A stretch of DNA of 64,000 nt from an uncultured delta proteobacterium (lineage in GTDB: Bacteria; Myxococcota; Myxococcia; SLRQ01). A program made the position numbers and the translations under genes. The stretch is taken from contig CAVSGM010000002.1 of the NCBI GenBank assembly GCA_963727485.1, positions 1,344,001 through 1,408,000 on the forward strand, written 5' to 3'. Numbering within the stretch: position 1 is the stretch's first letter; each line of letters starts with the position of its first letter. The notes below the pieces were generated by a model. It was given only the letters and a program-made list of their open reading frames with translations, was not told the DNA's origin and did not search any database. Shown here in pieces: positions 29,712-43,086 of the stretch.

Positions 29712-30413
29712 CTAGTTCGCCGGGCCGTGGCCGCGGCGGCAGGCCGGGTCGACCTTGAGGCAGACCTCGGCGACCTCGCTGACCACCCGCTGGAGGCGAC
29801 GGGTGACATTGGTCTCCTCGAGGATCTGCTGGCGGCGGAGGGGATTGGGGATGAGGCGGCAGGCGAGCTGGTCGGCGAGCTCGGCGGCCCCGCCGACGGT
29901 GTGGAGCAGGCGGCCGAGCGGCGCCTTGACGTCGGGGACCGCGTCGGCGAGGCGCAGCGCCAGCTTCTTGAGGGTCTGGCAGGCCTCGTTGTCGCAGGTG
30001 TCCGGGTCCAGCAGGGCCCCGGGGACGGGGCGGGCGGCGTCGAGGCGGGCGACCTGGAAGCGGCGGAACGCGGTGTCCGGGGGCAGCTCCTGGACCACCT
30101 TCACCCGGTCGGTGCCCCGGAGGAGGATGTTCCACCGGCCGTCGGGGAGGCGCTCCTCGTCGACGATGACCCCGGCGCCCAGCACCTCGAAGATCGGCGG
30201 CCGGCCGTCGTAGTCGGCCTCGTAGCCGGGCTTGAGCAGCGCCACGCCGAGGGCACGGTCGGTCTCGAGGCAGTGCTCGACCAGCGCCCGGTAGCGGGGC
30301 TCGAAGACGTGGAGGGGCAGCTCGGTCCCCGGGAAGAACACGGTCGCCGGCAGGGGGAAGACCGGGAGCCGATCGAGGACCGGGTCCTCGAGGAAGTGGG
30401 CCAACTCCGTCAT
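29712..30413 (-). CDS. LON peptidase substrate-binding (N-terminal) domain protein
   Basis: LPVFPL...FPGTELPLHVFEPRYRALV...LPDGRWNI. Confidence 0.9.
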   Translation of the reverse strand: MTELAHFLEDPVLDRLPVFPLPATVFFPGTELPLHVFEPRYRALVEHCLETDRALGVALLKPGYEADYDGRPPIFEVLGAGVIVDEERLPDGRWNILLRGTDRVKVVQELPPDTAFRRFQVARLDAARPVPGALLDPDTCDNEACQTLKKLALRLADAVPDVKAPLGRLLHTVGGAAELADQLACRLIPNPLRRQQILEETNVTRRLQRVVSEVAEVCLKVDPACRRGHGPAN

Positions 30414-30511: not shown

Positions 30512-31495
30512 TCAGGCGTAGGCGGCGAGGCGGCGGCGGGCGGTCTCGGCGACCCGGGCCCGCAGGGCGCTGGGGGCCAGGACCTCACCGTCGGCGCCGA
30601 GGGCGAGGACGAGCCCCTCCACCCACTCCCAGCTCGGGGCGTCGAGGCGGACCTCCACCGCGCCGCCGGCCGCGTCGGTCACCTGGGCGTCCTCGAAGCG
30701 CTCGCGCACCCACCGGGCCCGGGCCGGGCCGACCCGGAGGCGCACCGTGGCCTCGCCGGCGCGCTGGAGGAAGCGGGTGCGCCGGAGCCGGTCGAGGTCG
30801 AGGCTCGCCGGCGCCTCGTAGGCCCCGGCGGCGCCGACGAGGCGCGCCTCGCGGACCCGGTCGAAGCGGTAGAGCTTGGGGCCCTCGGCGCCGTCGGGCC
30901 CGGCGACCAGGTACCAGTAGCCCCGGTGCGCCAGGATCCCGTAGGGCTCCACCGTGCGCTCGCCGAAGGCCCCGGAGTGGGCCGAGTAGTAGGTCATGGC
31001 GACGCGCTGCCTGGCCTCCACCGCCCGGCGGAGCACCGCGTGGACGTCCCCCTCGGCGGTGGGATCGCCCCCGAGGACGATGCGGCCCTCGAGGGCCCGG
31101 TAGCGCTCGCGCTCGGCGGGGGTGAGGGCGGCCTCGAGCTTGGCCAGGACCCCCCGGAGCGCCGCGCCCCAGTCGCCGGTCTCGCCCCCGAGCAGGCTCT
31201 GGGCGCCCACCGCCAGGGCCAACGCCTCGTCGTGGGTGAGCCTCGGCGGGCGGGTCAGCGACTGGGCCAGGGCCACGTGGACCCGGTCGCCGTCGACGTA
31301 GACGTCCAGGAAGTCGGCGGGGCTGAACGGCGGCTTGCCCACCAGCAGCAGGAAGTCGATCTCCGCCAGGACCTCGTCGGGGCTGACCCCGAGGCGCTCG
31401 GCGAGCTCGTCCACCGGGATCCCGTCCTCGGCGCGGGCGGCGGCCGGGACCAGGAGGAGCAGCCGGCGGATGCGCTCGGGGACCGGGACGCTCAC
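30512..31495 (-). CDS. pafC: WYL-domain transcriptional regulator, PafC-like (wHTH-WYL-WCX)
   Basis: RIRRLLLLVP, RPPRLTHDEALAL, YYSAHSG..ERTVEP...WYL...YRFDRV; GTG start overlaps upstream stop. Confidence 0.82.
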   Translation of the reverse strand: MSVPVPERIRRLLLLVPAAARAEDGIPVDELAERLGVSPDEVLAEIDFLLLVGKPPFSPADFLDVYVDGDRVHVALAQSLTRPPRLTHDEALALAVGAQSLLGGETGDWGAALRGVLAKLEAALTPAERERYRALEGRIVLGGDPTAEGDVHAVLRRAVEARQRVAMTYYSAHSGAFGERTVEPYGILAHRGYWYLVAGPDGAEGPKLYRFDRVREARLVGAAGAYEAPASLDLDRLRRTRFLQRAGEATVRLRVGPARARWVRERFEDAQVTDAAGGAVEVRLDAPSWEWVEGLVLALGADGEVLAPSALRARVAETARRRLAAYA

Positions 31496-32532
31496 GCCGC
31501 GTCCTCCACCGCGGACCGGGCGAGCGCCCCCTCGAGGCGGGCGACGATCCGGGCCCGGGCGTCGTCGGGGCCGGCGATCACCGCCCCCTCGCCGAGGCCG
31601 AGGACGTGGGAGACCAGGGCGTCGAGGTGGCGCACCGGGACCGCCACCGTGGCCGAGCCGTCCGCCTCGGGGGAGACCCGGGCGCGGTCGCCGAAGAGGG
31701 CCCGGGCGGAGAAGGCCAGGTGGGGGGCGAGGCGCACGGTCACCTCCCGGGGCGGCTCCAGGGCCACCTCCCAGGGGCGTTGCCGGGCGAGGGCCGGGAG
31801 GTCGAGGTCCGCCGGGAGGTCGTAGTCGGCCTGCCGGGGCTTGGCGGGGTTCACGGCCAGGGCGGCGATGCGGTCGAGGTGGAAGGTGCGCGGGGCGCCG
31901 CGGAGGTGGCAGTGCCCGTGGAGGCACCAGGTGCCGTCCCGGAGGAAGAGGCCCCAGGGATCGACGTCGCGCTCGGTGGCCTCGTCCCGGTAGAGGCCCC
32001 GGTAGGTGAGGTGGACCCGCTTGCGCCGGGCCAGGGCGTCCCGGAGGGTGCCGAAGGCCGCGCCCACCTGCGCCGGGTCCCCGGCGAGGCCCGCGTCGAC
32101 CAGGAGGTGGCGGGCGACGGGCGCCTCGGTGGCGCCGGTCTCCTCGGCGGCGAAGCCGATCTTCTCCAGGGCCCGGCCCACCTCGGCGGCCCAGGGGAAG
32201 CCCTCCATGGCCCGGGCGGCGGCGCCGGCGACCGAGAGGAGGCCGAGCTCCTCGGGGGTAAGCTCGAGGCGCGGGAGGAAGTAGGCCTCCTGGGGGATGC
32301 GGTAGCCGCCCTCCACCGCGTCGGGGCCCGCGTCGGGATCGGGGTCGACGAAGGTGAGCGGCATGCCCAGGTCGAGGAGGTCGGCCTTGTCCCGCTCGAA
32401 CTTCCTGGCCGCGGCCTCGGCGCTGATCCCCGCGTAGTCGGGGAAGTGGTCGCGGATGGCGCGGAAGGGCACCGGCCGGTCGGCGTTGACCAGGAGGGTC
32501 ACCAGGTCGAGGAGGCGCTCGGCGCGGTCCAT
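31492..32532 (-). CDS. pafB: WYL-domain transcriptional regulator, PafB-like
   Basis: AERLLDLVTLL, RKFERDKADLLDLG (PafB-type), GYRI...YFLPRLELTPEE, RDVDPWGL...RTFHLDRI. Confidence 0.85.
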   Translation of the reverse strand: MDRAERLLDLVTLLVNADRPVPFRAIRDHFPDYAGISAEAAARKFERDKADLLDLGMPLTFVDPDPDAGPDAVEGGYRIPQEAYFLPRLELTPEELGLLSVAGAAARAMEGFPWAAEVGRALEKIGFAAEETGATEAPVARHLLVDAGLAGDPAQVGAAFGTLRDALARRKRVHLTYRGLYRDEATERDVDPWGLFLRDGTWCLHGHCHLRGAPRTFHLDRIAALAVNPAKPRQADYDLPADLDLPALARQRPWEVALEPPREVTVRLAPHLAFSARALFGDRARVSPEADGSATVAVPVRHLDALVSHVLGLGEGAVIAGPDDARARIVARLEGALARSAVEDAA

Positions 32533-32604
32533 GGGCGACCGGTGGTAGCACGGCGGGCCCCGGCCCGCCAAGGGCCCGGCGCGCGCGGCCGGGGCGCCGA
32601 GGGG

Positions 32605-33459
32605 TCAGCGGCCCAGCAGCCCGTCGACGATCTCGGTGCCGGTGAACCGGTGGCCCCGGCGCACCAGCTTCGCGCCGAAGCTGTAGAGGTCGTAGCCGTA
32701 GTGCCGGCGCCCGTCGGGGCCCCGGCTCCCCTTCGCGGTCCCCTGGCACCGCAGGCGCACGCCGAGGTGCCGCCGGTCGAGGGGCCCGCCGGCGCCGTGG
32801 AGGTGCCCGTGGAGGACGAAGTCGACCCCGAGCTCGGCGCAGGCGGCGAGCAGCGCCTCCCCGCCCTCGAGGCCCTCGGGGACGGTGCGGCCGAGGCGCG
32901 CCGAGGGGCCCACCGGGAGCGGGTCCGGGTGGTGGTGGACGGCGACCAGGCGCCGGCCCCGCGCGCCCCGGAGGAGCCGGGCGAGGGCGACGAGGTCCGC
33001 GGGCCGCACCCGGCCGGCGACCCGGTGCTCGGGGGCCGCGGTGCACAGGGCCACCAGGGTCAGGGGGCCCAGGCGCTTTCGCACCGGGTGGCCGAGGCCC
33101 AGGGCGCCGCCGCCGGGCAGGCCCCGGTTCACCTCGGCGAAGGTGTCGAGGAAGGCGTCGAGGGCGCGGCGCCGGCTGGCCGGGGTCGACCGGGCGCCCG
33201 GGTCGCCGGCGAGGTCGTGGTTCCCCGGGAGGACGGTGGCCCGGGCCGGGGACAGGAGCCCGTGGAGGCGCAGGAGCCGGACCACCGTGGCCCGGGCCCT
33301 CGGGTCCGGGCGGTCGACGACGTCGCCGGTGAGGAGGACGTGGTCGGCCCCCCGGGCCACCGCGTCCCCGAGGAGGAAGTCGAGGACGGCCCCGGACCCG
33401 CGCCCGTCGAGGGCGAGGTGGGGATCGGAGAGGTGGGCCAGGCGGTAGATGGCGGCCAT
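32605..33459 (-). CDS. Metallophosphoesterase (calcineurin-like)
   Basis: HLSDPH, TGDVVD, PGNHD, VHHHP, LHGHLH. Confidence 0.88.
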   Translation of the reverse strand: MAAIYRLAHLSDPHLALDGRGSGAVLDFLLGDAVARGADHVLLTGDVVDRPDPRARATVVRLLRLHGLLSPARATVLPGNHDLAGDPGARSTPASRRRALDAFLDTFAEVNRGLPGGGALGLGHPVRKRLGPLTLVALCTAAPEHRVAGRVRPADLVALARLLRGARGRRLVAVHHHPDPLPVGPSARLGRTVPEGLEGGEALLAACAELGVDFVLHGHLHGAGGPLDRRHLGVRLRCQGTAKGSRGPDGRRHYGYDLYSFGAKLVRRGHRFTGTEIVDGLLGR

Positions 33460-33525
33460 GCTAGTCCCCGGGGCGCCCGGGCACACCCGGGGGCCCGGGC
33501 CGCGGGGCGTCCGCCGGGCGGGCGC

Positions 33526-33963
33526 TCAGGCGCCGGAGAGGAACGCGCGCCAGCTCCCGCTCTCGACCCGGCGGCCCCGGGCCTTCACCTCGGCCTCGCC
33601 GGGGCCGGGGCAGGCGTAGATCCAGCACCGGGCCCCGCCGCCGTCGGCGAGGCGCACCGGGGTGGCCACCCGCACGTAGAGGCCGTCGTCGCCGAGGTCC
33701 GGGCCGGCGCCCTCGTACTCGTCGAGGGCGACGAGGGCGGTGGCGGGATCGACGAGGCGGATGATCTCGCCCTGGACCCGGCCGTCCCCGTCCCCGGCGC
33801 TGGCGCCGGCGAGGATGAGCGTCGGGTAGCCCTCGGGGAGGTGGTAGAGCGCGCCGGCGACCGAGCCCTCGCCCACCGCCTCGAAGAAGCGACGGAAGGG
33901 CTGCCGGGCCGCGTTCCCGGTGAGCAGCGAGCCGTAGACGAAGAGGAGATCGAGCGTCTGCAT
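33526..33963 (-). CDS. Gamma-glutamylcyclotransferase (AIG2-like) family protein
   Basis: LFVYGSLL, GYP, LDEYEG, CWIY, SGSW. Confidence 0.88.
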   Translation of the reverse strand: MQTLDLLFVYGSLLTGNAARQPFRRFFEAVGEGSVAGALYHLPEGYPTLILAGASAGDGDGRVQGEIIRLVDPATALVALDEYEGAGPDLGDDGLYVRVATPVRLADGGGARCWIYACPGPGEAEVKARGRRVESGSWRAFLSGA

Positions 33964-34053
33964 GGGGTCCCCCGACCCTCGGGCGCAGGGTCTACCATGG
34001 GCCCGGTGGAGGCGCCTACCACCCGACCATGGGAGAGCGGGTAGGATGGGCCC

Positions 34054-35466
34054 ATGTCCGCGCCCTGGCGCCGCTACCGCCTGGAGACCCTGGGCTGCAA
34101 GGCCAACCACTATGACGGCCTCGAGCTCGAGGCCGCCCTGAAGGCCCGGGGCTTCGTCGCCGCCGGCCACGGGGAGCCGGTGGACCTCTGCGTGGTCCAC
34201 GGGTGCACGGTGACCGCCGCCGCCGACCGCAGCGGCCGGCGCCTGGTGGCGGCCCTGCGCCGGCGCCACCCCCGAGCGCGGGTGGTGGTCGCCGGGTGCC
34301 CGGTGGAGGCGGGGACCGCCGCGGGGTACCGGGCCCACCACCTCCTGGGCCACCGGGGCAAGGCCGAGGCGGCGGCGCACCTGGAGCGTGCCCTCGCCGG
34401 CCCCGCCCCGGCCCCGGACGCCCCCGCCGCGCGCCTCGATCCCCCGGACGCCCCCTGGCCCGAGCCCACCGCGCCGAAGGCCGCCTTGGCCCCGAGCGCC
34501 GGGGCGCCCGGCGCGGGGGACGCAAGAGTCAGCGGAGGTACCCGGGCCCTGCTGCGGGTCCAGGAGGGCTGCGACGCCCACTGCACCTACTGCGTGATCC
34601 CCGCGGCCCGGGGCCCGGGCAGGAGCCTGCGCCCGGGGGCGGCGGTGGCGGCGGTGCGCCGGCTGGTCGCCGCCGGGGCCCGGGAGGTGGTCCTCACCGG
34701 CACCCGCCTCGGCGACTACGGCGTGGACCTCGGCGGCGAGCCCCTCCTGGAGACGCTCATCGACCGGATCCTCACCGCGACCTCGCTCCCCCGGCTGCGC
34801 CTCGGGTCCCTGGATCCCACCGAGGTGACCCCGGGCCTCCTCGACCGCCTCGCCGGCGACCCGAGGCTCTGCCCCCACGTCCACCTCTCGGTGCAGAGCC
34901 CGGACCCGGCGGTGCTCAAGGCCATGGGCCGCCGCTACCGGGACGCCGAGCTCGAGACCTGCCTCGAGGCCCTCGCCGCCCTCGAGGCGCCTTTGGGCGG
35001 GGTCTACGTGGGGGTCGACGTGATCACGGGCTTCCCCGGGGAGACCCCAAGGATCTTCGAGGCGACGGTGGCGCGCCTCGCGGCGCTGCCCTGGACCCGC
35101 CTCCACGTCTTCCCCTTCAGCCCCCGGCCGGGGACCGCCGCCCCCCGCCTCGCCGGGGCCGTGGACGAGGCCACCCGCAGGGCCCGGGCCCGTCGCCTGC
35201 GCGCCCTCTCGCTCGATCGGGTGGCCGCCCGCTACCAGGCGGTCCTCGACCGCTGCCGGTGCACCGGCGAGACCGTCGACGGAGTCCTCCTCGAGGCGGC
35301 GGATCCCCGGCACCCGGGGCGCCTGGGCCACAGCCCCGGCTACCTGCGCTGCCAGGTCCCGGACGCCGGGTCGCTCCCCCGGGGCGCCGTGGTCCGGGTG
35401 CGCCCCCGGGCGGTGGAGGTGGACGCCCGCGCCGGGGACGCGGTGCTGGTGGGCGCCCTCGCCTGA
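34054..35466 (+). CDS. mtaB: MtaB-like radical SAM tRNA methylthiotransferase
   Basis: TLGCKAN, CTVT, RVQEGCDAHCTYC, DVITGFPGET, LHVFPFSPRPGT. Confidence 0.8.
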   Translation: MSAPWRRYRLETLGCKANHYDGLELEAALKARGFVAAGHGEPVDLCVVHGCTVTAAADRSGRRLVAALRRRHPRARVVVAGCPVEAGTAAGYRAHHLLGHRGKAEAAAHLERALAGPAPAPDAPAARLDPPDAPWPEPTAPKAALAPSAGAPGAGDARVSGGTRALLRVQEGCDAHCTYCVIPAARGPGRSLRPGAAVAAVRRLVAAGAREVVLTGTRLGDYGVDLGGEPLLETLIDRILTATSLPRLRLGSLDPTEVTPGLLDRLAGDPRLCPHVHLSVQSPDPAVLKAMGRRYRDAELETCLEALAALEAPLGGVYVGVDVITGFPGETPRIFEATVARLAALPWTRLHVFPFSPRPGTAAPRLAGAVDEATRRARARRLRALSLDRVAARYQAVLDRCRCTGETVDGVLLEAADPRHPGRLGHSPGYLRCQVPDAGSLPRGAVVRVRPRAVEVDARAGDAVLVGALA

Positions 35467-35469
35467 GCC

Positions 35470-38400
35470 TCAGGCCCGGTCGCCCAAGCCACCGTCGCCG
35501 GCCGACCCGCCCCCGCCGCGCGCCGCCCCCGCCGTCGCTGCCATCGCTGCCGTCGCGATCGCCATCGCCGTCGCCGTCGCCGTGGCAGAGGCGGAGGTAG
35601 CCGCAGCCGAGGGCCTCGCAGGTGGCGCGCGGGTGACCCTCGAAGACCCCCCGGGCCCGGCTCTCGAGGAGCTGGCCACCGAGGCGCGCGACCCGGGCCA
35701 CCACCGCGTCGGGGGAGGCGGGCTGGTCGAGCCACTGGGGTCCGGCGCCGGCGGGGCCCTCGAGGAACTGGATCCCCAGGCGCAGCGGCGGCGCGTCGGC
35801 ACCCGCACCCGCCCGGCCCTCGGCGGCGGCGGCGCCGTAGCACTCGAGCTGGAACCGGTAGGCCTCGGGGCCGTCGCGGCGCGGGCGGGTGAGCTTGTAG
35901 TCGACCACCTCCACCGCGTCGTCGCGCTGGACCAGCAGGTCGATCTGGCCCTTGACGTGGACCACCAGCCCCGCGTCCCCCTCGGCGGCGAGGAGAAACG
36001 GCACCTCCCGGCCCACCGCCCCCGGGGGCAGGGCCCGGAGCCCGGCGCCGTAGCCCGAGGCGAGGAAGCGCTCGGCCGCGTCGACGAGCTCGGACTGCCG
36101 GACGGGGTCGACCCCGGCCACCGGGGCGATGGCCTCGAGGTGGGCGCGGCCCCCGGCGGCGAAGGCGTCGAGGTCGGCGTGCTCGAGGAGGGCGTGGACC
36201 AGGGACCCCCGGCGCCTGGGGTCGCCCACCGGGCCTGGGCGGTCGGCGTCGGCCACCGGGTCCTCGAGGGGGATGCGCGCCCGGGGGTGCTCCTCGAGGC
36301 CGAGGAGGAACGCCGCCCGGTAGCGCCGGGGGCACTCGTCGAAGGTCTGGAGCGCGGTCACCGGGAGGAACACCCGGCGCACCGGGAGCTGGGTGAGCGG
36401 CGCCACCCGGGCCACCGCCGCCGCGGCCTCGGCCGGGGAGTAGAGCGCCACCCGGGCCTTGGGATTGGGGAGGACCGACGGGGCGCGGAGGGTCTCGAAG
36501 GGCCGGCGGGCGACGCCGGCGCCGGCGTCGAGGGCGGCGTCGCAGAGGCGCCGCTCGCAGGTCTTGGGGACGGTCGCCGCCTCGCCGGCGAGGAGGATCC
36601 GCCGCTTGGCCCGGGTCAGCGCCACGTAGAAGAGCCGCGCCCGCTCGGCGGCCTCCCGGTCGTTGGCGCGCTGCTTCGCCTCGTCGAAGCGCCCGGCGGG
36701 GACCAGGGTGCCGTCGGGGCCCGGGGCCTTGAGGCAGGGCCCGAGGTCGGGGTCGAGGCGGAGGGGATCGCCGTGGCCCCGGGGCTTGCGGGCCAGGCCC
36801 CCCAGCGCCACCACCGGGAACTGGAGCCCCTTGGCCTGGTGGACGGTGAGCACCCGCACCGCCTCGCCCCCGGACTCCTCGACCACCGCCGCGGTCTGCT
36901 CCCGGACCTGCCGCGCCCCCTCGACCCGGTCGGCGAGCTCCCGGGCGAAGGCCTGGAGATCCCCACGGCCGGCGGCCTCCCGGGCCCGGGCGAAGGCGAC
37001 GACCTTGTCGACGTTGGCGACCTTCTGGGCCCCGTCGGGGAGGGCCGCCACCAGCGCCCGGTAGCCGGTCTCCCGGAGCAGGGTCTCGAGGGTGCGGGTG
37101 GGGCCGACCCGGTCGCCGTGGCGCGCCAGCACCCGGTGGAGGGCGGCGAAGCGGGCGAGGGCCGCGGCGTCGGCATCGGCGAGGCCCGCGGGCAACGGGA
37201 CCCGGCCCCAGAGCCACCGGTCGTCGAGGCGCCCGCCCCCCGCCTCGGCGAGGACGGCGAGGCCCGGGTCCGAGAGGGCCAGAAGCGGCGAGCGGAGGAC
37301 CGCAGCGAGGGCCACGGGGTTGCCCGGGTCGACCAGGAGGGTCAGGGCCCGGGCGAGGTCGCGGACCTCCTGGGCGTCGTAGAAGCCCCGGCCCTTGACC
37401 ACGTGGAAGGGCAGCCCGGCGCGGGTCAGCTCCTCGGTCCAGGTGGCGAGGTGGGTGAACACCGGGAGGAGGATGGCGACCTCGCCGTAGCCGGTGCCGT
37501 CGCCGCCCTCGCCGTCGCCGCAGAGCTCGGCGATGCGCCGGGCGACCATCCGCGCCTCGCGCACCGCCGGGGGGAGACCCGGGTAGGCGCTGCCGTCGAA
37601 GAGCTCCACCGCCGGTGACCCGGCGCCCGGGGCGACCCCGGCGCCGTCCCGGCGGCCGCCGTGGTCCCCGTCGCCGCCGTGGTCCCCGTCGCGCCGTCGT
37701 CCCCGTCGCCGCCGTCGTCCCCGTCGCCGCCGCCTCCGGCGCCCGGGGCGGGGATGAGATCGTCGTCGTCGTCGTAGCCGGTGGCCGCCTCCCCGTCGCC
37801 TCCGAGGGCCGCCCGGGCGAGGTGGTTCACGGTGGCCAGCACCGCCGGGGTGGACCGGTAGCTGGTGCGCAGGGCGAGGCGCCGCCCCCCGGCGGCCTCG
37901 AGCGCTTCGGTGAGCGCCTCGAAGACGGTGACGTCGGCGCCCCGGAACCCGTAGATGGACTGCTTGCGGTCGCCGACGATGAACAGGCCGCCGGGCTTCA
38001 GGGCCGCCCCCGGCGCCCCGGCCCGGGCGCCGTCGGCGTCGTCGTCCTCGGCGCGCAGGAGGCGGACGATCTGGGCCTGGACCGGGTCGGTGTCCTGGAA
38101 CTCGTCGACCAGGACCACGTCGTAGCGGCCCTGCACCGCCCGGCGCACCGCCGGGTGGTCGGCGAGGAGGTCCCGGGCGCCGATGAGCAGGTCGCGGAAG
38201 TCGAGGGCGTCCCGGGCGGCCTTGGCCTCGGCGTAGTCGGCGTGGGCCCGGGCGACCACCTCGGCGAGGCCCGCGGCGAGGGCCCGCGCCCCGGGGAGGC
38301 TTTCGGCCGCGGTGGCCGCGGCTCCGGCGGCGGCGGCGGCGGCCTTGGCCGCGTCCTTGAGGTCCTTGATGCCGTCCCGGCTCTGGCGCAGGGGGGCCAA

Positions 38401-39313
38401 GGCCCCGGGGACCGCCGCGGCGACGGCGGCGACCGCGCCCAGGTCCCCGGCGGCGCGGGCGTTCCGGAGCGTCGGTCTCGAGGGCCCGGGCGGCGTCGAG
38501 GGCGCCCCGGGTGTTGGGGTTCACCCAGGGGGCGTCGAAGCCGGCGAGGGCCGTGAGGGCCGAGGCGAAGCCGGCGCCGGCGGCCTCGGCCTCGGCGGCG
38601 AGGTGGGCGGCGTAGGCGTCGTCGGTGAGGTGGGAGCCTTCGAGGAGCGCCGCCGGGGCCACCCCCCGCTCCCCGAGCCAGGTGAGGGTCCGGCGGGCCT
38701 GGGCGACGGCGGTCCCGTAGCCGAAGGCCCGGACCAGGGCCTCGACCCCCGGGTGCGCCTCGGCGAGGGCGGCGCGGACCGCCCGGCGGCAGGCGACCTC
38801 GGCGAGGGCGTGGGCCTCGGTCTCGTCGAGGAGGCCGTAGCCCGGGTCGACCCCGGCGGCCACCGGGTGCCGGCGCAAGAGCCCCCCGGCGAAGCCGTGG
38901 AAGGTGGTGATGGTGGCGTCGGTGAGGCGCCGGGCGATCTCGGCCCACCCGTCCGGGGACGGCGGCGACCACCCGGGGCGCTCGGCCTTCATCCGGGCCA
39001 CCTGGGCGGCCAGCCGCGTGGGGAGCAGGCCCTCGGTGTCGCCGGCGGCCAGGCGCCGGACGGCGTCGCGGACGCGCTCGGCCATCTCTCCGGCGGCCTT
39101 CTCGGTGAAGGTGATGGCGAGGATGCGCTCCGGGGGCACCTCGGGGGTCTCGCGGCCGGTGTCGAGGGCCACCGCCCCGGCGAGGCAGCAGGCGTAGAGG
39201 GTGGTGAGGGTCTCGGTCTTGCCGGTGCCGGCGCTCGCCTGGACCACGGTGTTCCGGTCGAAGCGGAAGAGGGCCGCGTCGAGGGCGTCGCCGGTGAGGG
39301 GGGTGCGGCTCAC
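35470..39313 (-). CDS. addA: AddA-like UvrD helicase/nuclease (frameshifts about 38473 and 37692, probably also about 35520)
   Basis: ASAGTGKT, AITFTEKAA, VDEFQDT, VGDRKQSIYGFRGA, LTVHQAKGLQFP, FYVALTRA, nuclease GQIDLL...VVDYK. The 3' end is uncertain. Confidence 0.88.
37655..37725. repeat. 18-bp tandem repeat x4 inside addA encoding a Gly/Asp linker
   Basis: GCCGCCGT(G/C)GTCCCCGTC copies at 37655, 37673, 37691 (one base short, which is the frameshift) and 37708. Confidence 0.85.
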
Positions 39314-42300
39314 GACCCGCCCTCCTCGTCGGTGCCCGCGGGGACCACCACCCGGCACACGTCGGCGAACTCGCACCAGGTGCAGGCCCCGTCGGTGGGC
39401 CGCGGGCCCAGGTCGCCCCGGCGGGCGGCGGCGAGGAGCGAGGCCACCCGGGCGGCGAGGCCCGGGCGCTCGCCGTTGCCGTCGAGGAGGGCCGGGACGT
39501 CGACGCCGAGGTCCTTCCACTTGCCCCGGGTGCTGGCCAGGGCCTCGGAGACCACCAGGTGGCCAGGCGGGCGATCGCCGAGGGCCACGTAGCCGGCGTC
39601 GAGGTCGGCGCCGGCGAAGCGGGCCCGGGCGGCGGCGAGGTAGGCGGGGAGCTGGAGCTCGGTGTGCCCGAGGACCTCGGGGTAGAGGCGGGGCCGGAGG
39701 CCGGCGGCGCCCCCGGACTTGTAGTCGAGGACCCGCAGCTGGGCCCCCCCGGGCCCGTCGCGGCGGTCGAGGCGGTCGAGGCGTCCCCGGAGGTGGTGGA
39801 CCCGCCCGGGCTCGCCGGGGTCGGGGAGGGCCAGGGCCGGCCACCCGTCGTCGCCGGCGCCGAAGGCGCGCTCGGTGGCCTCGAGGGTCCACCCGGCGTC
39901 GGCCTCGCACTCGGCGTCGACCAGGCGCCCCACCGTCTCCAGGGCGGCGTCGGCCTCGAGGGCGAAGAGGGCCGGGTCGCCGGCGTGGCCGGTCTCGGGC
40001 CAGGTGGCGACCACCCCCCGGGCCGCCGCCTCCGCCGCCTCCCTCGCCGCCTCGCGCCGCGCCGGGGTCAGGGGCAGCAGCCCCGCGCCGTCGAGGGCCA
40101 TCCACGCCCGCTCCAGGCAGGCGTGGAGGAGCTGGCCGCGGCTCATGGGGTCGAGGGTCTCGTCCCGGCGCTCCGGGGCCTCGAGGGCCAGGGCCCGGCC
40201 GGCGAAGGCCTGGAAGCCGCACCGGGCGAGGCGCTCGAGCTGGGTCACCGAGAGGGGCCGGTCGGCGCCGGCGTCGAGGCGGGCGGCCAGGCGCGGGGGC
40301 AGGGGCCCCACCTGACCGGTGTGGGTCCCGGGGGGGCGGTCGGGGTCGAGGAAGAACCCGTGGCGGGCCCGCTCCACGGAGAGCGGCGCCACCAGCCGCC
40401 CGAGGCGCACCCCCCCGGCGGCCAGCGCCGCCTCGACCGAGGCGGGCAGGGGCGCGGGCACCGGGAACGACCCGGGGCGGTCCGGGGGCGCGCCGAAGAT
40501 CCGCCCGGCGAGGGCGACCTCCAGGTCCGCCGGGGTCGCCGCCTGGGGCCGGGTCGGGCCGTCGTCCTTCTCGCCCGGGACCCCGGGGACCGGCGCCAGG
40601 GCCACCTCGGTGCGCGTGAGGCCGAGGCGCGCCTCGACCTCGGCGAGGTAGGGCGAGGCCACGGCCACCCGCCCGGTGTCCGAGGTCCGGGCGAAGGAGA
40701 GGCAGAGGTGCTCGGTGGGCAGGTGGAGGGCGAGGGCGAAGAGGAGCGCCTCCTCGGCCCGGCGGGCCGGGGCGTCGCCCTCGCCCCGGTCGTGGTCGGT
40801 CATCACCGGGAACGCCGGTCGGCCGAGGGCGCGGTTGAGGCGGCGGCGGGTGGCGTCGGGGAGGAGCGGGTCCTCCTCGGCCCGGGCGGGGAAGGCGCCG
40901 TCGGCGAGCCCCATGAGGAAGAGCGCCCGGCACCGCGTCGGGGCCAGGTCCTCGGCGCCCAAGAGGCGCACCGCCCCGCCCCGGAGGGCCGCGGCCCGGA
41001 GGGTGCGGGCGTCGAGGGCGTCGCCGAGCAGCGCCTGGAAGGCGGCGGCCCCGAGCACCCGGTCGGCCTCGCCGAGGCGATCGGCCACCGCCAGGCAGTC
41101 GTCGAGGGCGGCGTCGAGGGCGGCCAGGGCCGCCTCGTCCCGGGCCACCGCCTCGAGGGCGGCGCCGGCCAGCGGCCCGGCCCCCTCGCCGGCGAGGAGC
41201 CGGGCCCCGGTGGCCTGGACCCCGGCCCGCAGCCCCAGGGTGGCCTCGGCGAGGCGGAGGCGGTCGACGTGCTCGGCGACGGTCCCGGCGCGCCCCAGGG
41301 CCGAGAGGGCCGGGAGCACCCGGTCGAGGTGATCGGCGACCTTCAGGCCCTCGGGGTCCGGCGGGGCCCCGGGGCGGCTCGCCGCCGCGGCGGCCTGGCG
41401 CACCGCCCGGACGTAGCCCTCGCCGAGGTCGTCGACGGCCCCGGCCCGGCGCAGCCAGCGGATCACCGCCCGGGCCCCGAGGCCCGCCTCGCCCACCCCC
41501 ACGTAGCGGGAGCCGAAGAGGGCCAGGAGCCCGTCGCGATCGAGGTGCTCGCGGGCGAGGCGCATCAGGTCGAGGAGCAGGCGCACCGGCCCCACCGACT
41601 GCACCGGCCGGCCGCGGCGATCGTCCACCGGGAGGCCCATGTCGGCCAGGGCGTCGACCAGCGCCAGGGCCTCGCCCCCGAGGCGCCGGGCGGCGACCAC
41701 GACGTCCTCGGGGGCCATCCCCGAGGCGACGAGCGCCCGGACCCGGCGGGCCACCTCCCGGGCCTCGGCAGCGGCGTCGGGGGCGGCGACGGTCTCGAGG
41801 CCGGCGAGCCCGGCGGCGCCCCCCGGGGGCGCCTCGGCCTCGGCCCCGGGCGGCGGCGGCGCCGGGAGGAACGCGGCGGCGGCGGCCCCCGGGCCCGGGG
41901 CCCGGCTGCGCCGGTCGGCGGGGAGGTCCTCGGCGAGGTCGACCTGCCCGCCGGCGCCCCCGGCCTCGAAGAGGCGCTTGACCGAGACCAGCCAGGCGAA
42001 CGCCCCGCCCTCGGCCATGATGCCCGGGAGCACCACCCGCACCCCGCCGCCGGTGGCGGCGAGGCGGGAGGCGAGGGCCTCGAGGAGGCGGACGTCGGCG
42101 GCGGTGTAGCGGAAGGTGCCCTCGAGCACCACCAGCACCGGCCCGTCGACCAGGGCCGGGGGCAGGGGGGCGCCGGCGGCCAGGGCGTCGGCGAGGCGGC
42201 CGGGCAGGGAGGCCGCGTCGACCGCCTCGAGGGCGGCCAGCCGCCGCTCCCACCGCTCGAGGAGGTGGCCGAGGCGGGCGCCGTCGGGGCCGGTGGCCAC

Positions 42301-42642
42301 GAGCTGCTCGGGGCGGGCCCCGGCGCCGCGGCAGTCCTGGAGGGCCCGGGCGGCGGCGGCGACCAGCCCCTGGGGGAGCCGGCCCCGGTGGCGCAGGCGC
42401 CCGAGGGCCGGGTCGGCGTCGGCGGCCTCGGCGAGGACCGAGCGCAGCAGGTGCCGCTCGGCCACCGGGGAGAGCGGCGCCACCCCGAGGCGCGCGGCGG
42501 CGAGGAGGTCCTGGTGGAACCTCGCGGCGGCGACGATGTCCCGGCCGTCGAGGACCCGCCCCCCGCGGTCGGCGAGGCGCTCGGCCTGGCGCACCTCCGC
42601 CGAGGCGGTGTCGGGGAGGACCAGGAGTCGGCGCCGTCGCAT
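39310..42642 (-). CDS. addB: AddB-like PD-(D/E)XK nuclease subunit with Fe-S cysteines
   Basis: Degenerate helicase body; LSVTQLERLARCGF, LRGRLDRLD, VLDYKSG, QLPAY, CTWCEFADVC; stop overlaps addA start. Confidence 0.88.
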   Translation of the reverse strand: MRRRRLLVLPDTASAEVRQAERLADRGGRVLDGRDIVAAARFHQDLLAAARLGVAPLSPVAERHLLRSVLAEAADADPALGRLRHRGRLPQGLVAAAARALQDCRGAGARPEQLVATGPDGARLGHLLERWERRLAALEAVDAASLPGRLADALAAGAPLPPALVDGPVLVVLEGTFRYTAADVRLLEALASRLAATGGGVRVVLPGIMAEGGAFAWLVSVKRLFEAGGAGGQVDLAEDLPADRRSRAPGPGAAAAAFLPAPPPPGAEAEAPPGGAAGLAGLETVAAPDAAAEAREVARRVRALVASGMAPEDVVVAARRLGGEALALVDALADMGLPVDDRRGRPVQSVGPVRLLLDLMRLAREHLDRDGLLALFGSRYVGVGEAGLGARAVIRWLRRAGAVDDLGEGYVRAVRQAAAAASRPGAPPDPEGLKVADHLDRVLPALSALGRAGTVAEHVDRLRLAEATLGLRAGVQATGARLLAGEGAGPLAGAALEAVARDEAALAALDAALDDCLAVADRLGEADRVLGAAAFQALLGDALDARTLRAAALRGGAVRLLGAEDLAPTRCRALFLMGLADGAFPARAEEDPLLPDATRRRLNRALGRPAFPVMTDHDRGEGDAPARRAEEALLFALALHLPTEHLCLSFARTSDTGRVAVASPYLAEVEARLGLTRTEVALAPVPGVPGEKDDGPTRPQAATPADLEVALAGRIFGAPPDRPGSFPVPAPLPASVEAALAAGGVRLGRLVAPLSVERARHGFFLDPDRPPGTHTGQVGPLPPRLAARLDAGADRPLSVTQLERLARCGFQAFAGRALALEAPERRDETLDPMSRGQLLHACLERAWMALDGAGLLPLTPARREAAREAAEAAARGVVATWPETGHAGDPALFALEADAALETVGRLVDAECEADAGWTLEATERAFGAGDDGWPALALPDPGEPGRVHHLRGRLDRLDRRDGPGGAQLRVLDYKSGGAAGLRPRLYPEVLGHTELQLPAYLAAARARFAGADLDAGYVALGDRPPGHLVVSEALASTRGKWKDLGVDVPALLDGNGERPGLAARVASLLAAARRGDLGPRPTDGACTWCEFADVCRVVVPAGTDEEGGS

Positions 42643-42649
42643 CACAGGC

Positions 42650-42671
42650 GGTCTACCACGGGCCTCCGACA
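42650..42671 (-). promoter_or_regulatory. PafBC/RecA-NDp-type promoter motif upstream of addB
   Basis: Minus strand TGTCGG-AGGCCCGTGG-TAGACC versus mycobacterial consensus TGTCGG-N10-TA-N3-T; only the last T differs; 7 nt before the addB ATG. Confidence 0.65.
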
Positions 42672-42678
42672 GAACCGG

Positions 42679-43086
42679 TCACACCGACGGCCCCCGGGTG
42701 AGCTCGGCGAGGAAGCGGATCTCCGCGACCAGGTTGTCGAGGCCCACCTCCCGCTGCCACACCAGCTCGGTGACCAGGGCCAGGTCGGCCTCGGGGCCGG
42801 CGTCGGGGAGGGTGGACTCGGTGGTGTCGGCGTGGGTGAGGACGTAGCCCCGGGCCCCCAGGCGGTCGCCGAGGCGCCCGCGCAGCTCCGCCTCGACCTC
42901 GGCCGGGGGCCGGCCCGCGTGGCGGGCGACCACGGTGAGCTCGAGGTGGTTCACCGAGACGGTGAGGGCCACCCCCGGGGCGGGCTCCACCATCCGGCTG
43001 TGGCCCAGCCGCCGCACCGGCGCCAGGCCGACGCCGGCGAAGGCCGCCTCCGCCCGCTGGAGGAACGCCCGGCCCCCCTCGGCCAA
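42679..43086 (-). CDS. Hypothetical protein
   Basis: TTG start abutting the archaemetzincin stop; GC3-biased frame. Confidence 0.6.
   Translation of the reverse strand: MAEGGRAFLQRAEAAFAGVGLAPVRRLGHSRMVEPAPGVALTVSVNHLELTVVARHAGRPPAEVEAELRGRLGDRLGARGYVLTHADTTESTLPDAGPEADLALVTELVWQREVGLDNLVAEIRFLAELTRGPSV

Follow-up and report, generated by a model that had tools for sequence, protein, structure and literature searches.

The nearest known system to the one described here is actinobacterial PafBC acting at the RecA-NDp -26 promoter, as characterized in Mycobacterium smegmatis (PDB 7P5X, 9FND and 6SJ9; PMC8635444, PMC11804915), for which the consensus tGTCgg(N10)tA(N3)T is quoted (PMC8635444). 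We analysed a window of 64,000 nucleotides (nt) from an uncultured member of the Myxococcota (assembly GCA_963727485.1, contig CAVSGM010000002.1, positions 1,344,001 to 1,408,000), which carries an orthologous pafB-pafC pair and, in front of an addB-like nuclease gene, a sequence of this form, hereafter the box. The myxobacterial system shares with actinobacterial PafBC its gene order, domains, PafB recognition-helix residues, PafC D62, hexamer, 10-nt spacer and -10 element, and the candidate targets common to both include recA, end-resection genes, imuAB and lhr, with dual LexA control at recA. It differs in belonging to another phylum, in that a Pup ligase was not found in the host genome, and in the absence of the box here from uvrB, uvrC and ruv. 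The myxobacterial box also leans towards TGTCAG, often lacks the final T of the -10 and has C at -12 in several families, while on the protein side PafB R211 is His, PafB Y196 varies and RpoD S446 is Ala. Published data indicate that M. xanthus pafBC is LexA-repressed, whereas mycobacterial PafBC levels are constant. By analogy with mycobacteria, the window's pair very probably activates recA, ssb, addBA and other repair promoters through the same sigma-adaptation route.

Other regulators of winged helix-turn-helix (wHTH)-WYL-WCX architecture, including DriD of Caulobacter, SiwR of mycobacteria and the WYL activators of Moraxellaceae and Acinetobacter, are likewise damage-responsive and act outside the SOS response. 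DriD-type sites are palindromic. These are single-gene regulators, with DriD described as a homodimer, whereas the window has two different genes and a non-palindromic hexamer, and the similarity of DriD-type proteins to the window PafB is far weaker (E about 3e-5) than that of PafB itself (4e-21).

Within the Myxococcota, MXAN_1359/1360 of Myxococcus xanthus bear the name 'pafBC' and are orthologous to the window's pair; the copy in a Myxococcus-like genome (G024) falls in the same clade as the window PafB in a quick tree. The view of an earlier note on this DNA, that such a system had not been described in this lineage, was overstated, as the M. xanthus genes are named in PMC9705874 and PMC12288472, where LexA is reported to bind weakly and PafBC levels to be higher in a lexA mutant. 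According to a single sentence of PMC9705874, a PafBC-binding sequence is present in 24 of 51 genes; neither motif nor gene list was found in the text covered, and its Fig. S3 may list the genes. In the literature covered (also PMC6789036 and PMC7617703), in which subscription journals are thinly represented, we found no description of a conserved myxobacterial box, of its loss together with pafBC, or of a link to ddiA. This analysis adds the defined motif, the phylum-wide contrast and the ddiA link, the M. xanthus part being partly anticipated in print.

A PafBC-type pair and a matching promoter element

The two regulator genes lie on the minus strand at 32532-30512. The first, pafB (31492..32532; ATG at 32532, stop ending at 31492), encodes a wHTH-WYL-WCX protein of 346 amino acids (aa) with Pfam WYL and WCX domains, and pafC (30512..31495) encodes a 327-aa HTH_PafC-WYL-WCX protein (Pfam HTH_PafC at 86.7 bits, with WYL and WCX) from a GTG at 31495. 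The pafC start and pafB stop overlap in the sequence GTGA, and this overlap, the Pfam domains and the PDB matches agree with the earlier identification of a coupled pair in pafB-pafC order. In sequence searches each subunit is nearest its namesake among solved structures: PafB best matches PafBC 6sj9 (1e-33) and PafB 7p5x, against 1e-4 for PafC, and PafC best matches PafC 7p5x (1.5e-29), against 5e-17 for PafB. The genes adjoin each other in 77 of 80 related loci. Homologues of the window PafB belong to Myxococcota such as Anaeromyxobacter, Archangium and Corallococcus, in line with the earlier note's view that the source is probably a myxobacterium.

The box in front of addB reads TGTCGG AGGCCCGTGG TAGACC (42671-42650, minus strand) and is present just as the earlier note had it. 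Its hexamer, a predicted PafBC-type -26 element (42666..42671), fits the consensus of PMC8635444, and the -10 element TAGACC (42650..42655) lies 10 nt 3' of the hexamer and 7 nt 5' of the addB ATG at 42642; from this spacing the addBA transcript is predicted to be leaderless. In the window, ten TA-type -10 boxes precede a called start at a distance of 4-12 nt, and only that of addB has TGTCGG at the right position. A public DNA contig, from a run that is possibly not independent, spans 42618-42792 with its sole listed mismatch at 42736, outside the motif.

Downstream of the box, the addB-like gene (39310..42642, minus strand, 1110 aa) encodes a C-terminal PD-(D/E)XK nuclease (Pfam PDDEXK_1), and is coupled to an addA-like UvrD helicase-nuclease gene (35580..39313, minus strand, 3' end approximate) recognized by homology to a protein of a related genome (G002). 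The order of nuclease gene and helicase-nuclease gene is an architecture fitting AddAB/AdnAB-like enzymes, while the AddB NCBIfam models score 53.5 and 26.7 bits, under their curated cutoffs of 903.7 and 486.5.

Co-occurrence of pair and box among relatives

Genomes were sorted by HTH_PafC and PafB-HTH searches into those with and those without the orthologous pair, and the 400 nt before the best recA match were examined in 97 of them (54 pafBC-positive, 43 negative). Outside the class, 70 of 85 genomes were taken, five being excluded from the search, one having no recA match and nine not having been fetched. The strict box, TGTC[AG]G-N10-TA, precedes recA in 40/54 positive genomes versus 1/43 negative ones, the sole negative match sitting 21 nt before the protein match. 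Allowing TA or CA, a post hoc choice made after seeing the data, gives 47/54 versus 1/43. Other spacers with the strict pattern gave 0-1 matches, except for 12 nt (10/54), mostly a TATA/CATA echo. Among the seven remaining misses are four positives (G065, G084, G104 and G116) that gave a lower-identity recA, probably a second paralogue, and were counted as misses; the other three have TGTCCG, an 11-nt spacer and a different -10, respectively. Second recA copies had the strict box in none of eight examined. A LexA-type core stands before recA in 44/54 positives and 28/43 negatives, so the recA promoters of the negative genomes were captured.

The same contrast was found at ssb, where the strict box occurs in 13/17 positive and 0/8 negative genomes (relaxed, 15/17 and 0/8), and at recN (8/18 and 0/8). 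In three genomes inside otherwise positive families (G001, G011 and G020) the orthologous pair is missing, and none of their recA, ssb and recN genes has the strict box. One of these, G001, keeps only a second type of PafBC-like pair, an argument for the window's pair as the cognate activator. The box at recA was also found in five named Myxococcia and one further genome, and two Kofleriaceae have CGTCAG-N10-TA there. Across Myxococcota the box tracks the presence of orthologous pafBC.

At addB the box or a one-base variant stands just before the gene in 12 of 28 pafBC-positive loci from four families, the window's included, and the strict box in three of the 28 (one truncated locus is excluded from the count). 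The idea that the box is kept at addB orthologues thus stood for these 12 loci and failed for the other 16. We conclude that recA and ssb form the conserved core, with addB a variable member.

Several side observations concern these promoters. In the families of G058, G071, G075, G079, G091, G099 and G103, CA replaces TA at the recA -10, mostly after TGG or TGC and with the 10-nt spacing kept. At recA the LexA and PafBC boxes occur in either order. LexA comes first in the host genome (positions 180710-180909 of its contig C1), G003, G004 and Anaeromyxobacter-like genomes, suggestive of two promoters, and in Myxococcus-like genomes its box follows just downstream of the PafBC box, as might be expected if both signals are needed. 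Outside the phylum, the pair occurs in 7 of 101 sampled Acidobacteriota genomes, whose PafB sequences nest among those of Myxococcota in a quick tree, a hint of gene transfer.

Conservation of contact residues

In M. smegmatis, PafB R46 and R50 read the GTC triplet with help from E42, A43, K5, R8, S40, K52, R56 and Y76 (PMC8635444). In alignment with that protein, the window PafB retains the equivalents of R8, S40, E42, A43, R46, R50, K52 and Y76, the exceptions being R56, which is Leu, and K5, which is Arg; the equivalents of R46, R50, K52 and Y76 are invariant across 18 aligned PafB homologues. The residues that bind single-stranded DNA (ssDNA) in M. smegmatis are PafB R181, Y196, R204, R208, R211 and R214 together with PafC R201 and R204 (PMC11804915), and six of these eight are retained (PafB R181, R204, R208 and R214; PafC R201 and R204). 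At the interface with the sigma factor, PafC D62 and the host RpoD residues R416 and R442 are retained. A complex prediction of the PafB HTH, the PafC HTH and RpoD region 4 scored close to zero and was not used either way.

The host genome (G000; 5.55 Mb, 73% GC, 93% complete; C labels denote its contigs) also has two single WYL genes and a second PafBC-like pair (C1:641190-643057). The latter falls in a separate clade with 98 Shimodaira-Hasegawa-like approximate likelihood-ratio (SH-aLRT) support in a quick tree of Myxococcota and Acidobacteriota rows, with no actinobacterial sequences. It is followed by a phosphatase-like open reading frame (ORF) and an ADP-ribosylglycohydrolase gene, and related pairs occur in G001 and G002.

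Genes downstream of the box

Gene starts in the host genome were taken from a self-trained gene caller (4632 called genes). By raw genome count the exact TGTCGG-N10-TA is not enriched, with 12 matches versus 4-83 for other spacers. The strict pattern has 29 matches, of which 27 are non-coding, against 3-19 non-coding matches for the other 14 spacers, and 13 lie at most 150 nt before a called start, against 0-5; the signal is positional rather than numerical. DNA-metabolism genes follow ten of the 29 (dnaX-ybaB-recR, recA, imuAB, ssb, holB-holA, recN, dprA, lhr, addBA and a PD-(D/E)XK nuclease gene), RAYT-like transposase genes follow seven, and other or no genes follow 12. One-base variants precede radA, two Mre11/SbcD-like genes, uvrA, xerC and a DnaC-like operon.

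The enrichment at repair genes that the earlier note set as a test was recovered. In a list that leaves out addB itself (recA, uvrA, uvrB, uvrC, ruv, lexA and ssb), the strict box is found at 2/7 and a relaxed form at 3/7, compared with genome-wide rates of 16/4632 (0.35%) and 68/4632 (1.5%; binomial p about 2e-4 and 1e-4). Among 22 further repair or replication genes located with E. coli and G024 queries (four queries had no match), the box was found only at xerC, and it was found at none of 17 housekeeping controls. The presence of the box at some repair genes, few of the 22 others and none of the controls indicates a selective regulon, mainly of recombination, replication restart and translesion synthesis, that overlaps with LexA at recA and recN.

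Two side observations concern the same genome. A strict box at C3:719535 stands some 310 nt upstream of an ORF for a DncV-like nucleotidyltransferase, possibly reflecting damage-linked control of a defence gene, and TGTCAG-N10-CATACT precedes a degenerate Rv2578c-like radical-SAM gene (C1:373408).

The predicted regulon in Myxococcus

The M. xanthus probe sequence of PMC9705874 is present in the recA promoter of G024. Of the strict matches in this genome, 57 are followed by a called ORF, and the Pfam scan covered 49 of these ORFs. DNA-related genes with the box comprise sbcD, ssb, recA, recN, ligA, topA, gyrA/parC, mutS, a uracil glycosylase gene and three Uma2 nuclease genes; separately, two paralogues of an unknown family carry it. 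In M. xanthus, RecN, RecA2, SbcD, SSB, LigA and GyrA are UV-induced, and SSB and LigA are unchanged in a lexA mutant (PMC9705874); the genes named recN, recA, sbcD, ssb, ligA and gyrA carry the box in G024, the correspondence with the induced proteins being by name only. The recN box adjoins a weak SOS-like sequence, reported as unbound by LexA (PMC9705874), and RecN and PafBC levels both rise in the M. xanthus lexA mutant (PMC12288472), a combination that a cascade from LexA to PafBC would explain.

A further candidate target is ddiA, where the box was placed from Myxococcus-like orthologues rather than from the M. xanthus DK1622 sequence. One G024 box precedes an XRE gene whose neighbours encode HEAT-repeat and ParA proteins, which we take to be the domains of the Pom neighbours. 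In M. xanthus, ddiA is reported beside pomXYZ, with its ATG at +94 (PMC12288472). The box stands 98-101 nt before the ATG in 5/5 close ddiA orthologues and in 0/4 paralogues, one weak match being outside both counts. Given an ATG at +94, the -10 would span -13 to -8, and the hexamer would span -29 to -24, a single base off the PafBC position. At dinB a variant box was found in one genome (G130) of three. PMC12288472 says of ddiA that its induction 'remains to be determined', and attributes the control of ImuB, DinB and RecX to LexA- and DdiA-independent regulators, left unidentified there, the pafBC homologues being set aside. In Myxococcus, LexA repression of pafBC together with the ddiA box would likely yield a cascade that runs from LexA through PafBC and DdiA to DnaE2.

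Mechanism and competing explanations

By inference from M. smegmatis, PafB and PafC would form a heterodimer, and ssDNA would bind their WYL domains and thereby convey the presence of damage. The PafB HTH would read the GTC triplet at about -26, while the PafC HTH would bind region 4 of sigma-70 and so replace the -35 element. As judged from these sequences, the pair is likely the switch for a myxobacterial SOS-independent repair response. A search with the Pup ligase family PF03136 found no member in the 93% complete host genome, its control being positive in Corynebacterium, which suggests that shut-off probably follows once ssDNA is gone, helped by renewed repression in species with LexA control of pafBC.

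A number of observations weigh against this reading. Only three independent pairs of lineages on well-supported branches (seven on all branches) could be contrasted on a quick recA tree of 71 genomes, all in the same direction (sign test p=0.25), and G020, which lacks the pair, has a degenerate CGTCCG-N10-TA 254 nt before recA. Pair-bearing Acidobacteriota lack the box at recA (0/9), and at ssb and recN in one genome. The earlier proposal of a PafBC-like regulator with a conserved operator is supported in its core, the box being enriched at repair genes and following the pair among relatives; in the host genome it is missing before lexA, ruvCAB, uvrB and uvrC, and likewise before uvrD, recG, recQ, recJ, polA, priA and mfd. 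The box was found at lhr in none of four relatives' loci. In G024 the strict pattern has 78 matches versus 74 for the reversed control, most matches precede unrelated genes or none, and uvrA, ruvA and the second recA have no box; uvrA, ruvA, recA1 and lhr are published as induced in M. xanthus yet lack the box in the Myxococcus-like genomes examined. On the protein side, host RpoD has Ala at S446, a PafC contact (position assigned without gaps from chain 5tw1_F, a SigA of 466 aa whose source species is assumed). PafB R211 and Y196, both needed for ssDNA binding in M. smegmatis (PMC11804915), are His and Cys in the window protein.

The protein substitutions would suit a pair that binds the box but acts otherwise, through a different polymerase contact or as a CapW-type repressor released by ssDNA, and WYL repressors do exist (PMC11662680). 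We regard this as quite improbable, given that the site is a single non-palindromic hexamer fixed 10 nt before the -10, the position of an adaptor, that PafC D62 and RpoD R416 and R442 are kept, and that genomes without the pair are also without the hexamer. The small number of independent contrasts and the Acidobacteriota without a box at recA would instead fit an alternative sigma or unrelated regulator that reads the box and follows pafBC in its distribution by chance; this appears highly improbable when the PafBC consensus is matched in hexamer, spacing and -10, the DNA-reading residues are invariant and pair and strict box are missing together from three separate lineages of Myxococcia. 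The least probable of these alternatives is that the second pair of the host genome, alone or jointly, is the cognate activator there: its PafB keeps E-A-x-x-R-x-F-E-R-D-K and with it the same recognition helix, but it belongs to the separate clade, and in G001, with that type only, recA, ssb and recN are all without the box.

A milder alternative, which we consider unlikely, accepts the regulon and treats the addB box as incidental or vestigial. The strict form is rare at addB, 16 of the 28 pafBC-positive loci have none (15 of these 16 being in 9-10-Mb genomes), and the window's -10 ends in C. Set against this are the same-spacing variants just before addB in four families and the fact that AdnAB is PafBC-regulated in mycobacteria (PMC8682763, PMC8223512). 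Activation of addBA and the core repair genes by the window's pair through sigma adaptation is the reading that we retain.

Mobile elements

All seven full RAYT-like Y1 transposase genes of the host genome (C1:606005, C1:1027410, C1:746795, C1:456520, C2:718600, C3:306252 and C3:19106) have TGTCAG-ACCC-N6-TAGA(A/C)T before their start. The copies are 55-70% identical to the query copy, and six of the seven boxes directly follow a hairpin; at C11:159695 the same hairpin and box occur, and a transposase was not detected. These seven Y1 transposase genes share with RAYT (NF047646) a dispersed distribution, the HUH and Tyr motifs and a hairpin upstream, and differ in scoring 52 bits against a cutoff of 80 and in each having a PafBC-type promoter. 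A literature search on RAYT gave unrelated papers only. Elsewhere the RAYT box was found in G154 (5/6 examined of 13) and was not found in G012 (0/3), G009 (0/7 examined of 20), G153 (0/6 of 23), G058 (0/1) or two pafBC-negative genomes (0/7). We therefore reject it as a general feature of these elements; among the genomes examined it is lineage-specific, to the host genome and G154.

In a pafBC-positive member of the Acidobacteriota (G152), 22 of 53 pattern matches are identical, and the four examined are the end of an insertion sequence that we take to be IS1634-like. There TGTCAG-N10-TATATG lies 9 nt before a transposase-like ATG, possibly marking another mobile element that uses the box.

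Neighbouring features

Between addBA and pafBC sits a radical-SAM (UPF0004, by Pfam) gene on the plus strand (34054-35466). As this gene intervenes on the opposite strand, addBA and pafBC are not one transcript, and co-transcription was rejected. A -10-like TACCAC stands before pafB (32542..32547, minus strand) without a -26 box, and with no box in front of pafB there is no sign of autoregulation. Downstream of pafC, a stand-alone gene for a LON substrate-binding domain (29712..30413, minus strand; Pfam PF02190) has its own -10. It had been proposed as a shut-off factor, and this was not borne out: among 141 loci of relatives, some of them overlapping or short, a single one has such a gene next to pafBC, and we treat it as a neighbour only.

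The addA gene carries two compensating frameshifts, its frames running -1/-2/-1 along the G002 homology with part of the UvrD domain (Pfam) encoded in the middle frame. As recA of the same assembly is also frameshifted, once near its 3' end (C1:180909-182261), assembly indel errors are likely; public DNA contigs did not settle the addA frameshifts, and among the sequencing runs no RNA run holding this sequence was listed. More widely, in ten window genes (13046-54891) the start codon follows a TA-type -10 by a few nt only, which suggests that leaderless transcripts are frequent.

Significance

On balance we favour a broader proposal, that much of Myxococcota, M. xanthus included, relies on PafBC as its main activator of damage responses independent of SOS, and that PafBC reads the DNA code known from Actinobacteria. 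In M. xanthus it would then supply the inducer that ddiA and dinB have lacked, in a chain from LexA to PafBC to DdiA to a mutagenic polymerase. Transposase genes would have captured the box more than once, so that damage would also induce mobile-element enzymes.

In the literature covered, sigma adaptation by PafBC is presented as actinobacterial, and its operation in a distant Gram-negative phylum without Pup would make the mechanism a cross-phylum one. For Myxococcus, the box and its regulator offer a testable answer to a published gap (PMC12288472), namely the inducer of ddiA and the LexA- and DdiA-independent control of ImuB, DinB and RecX.

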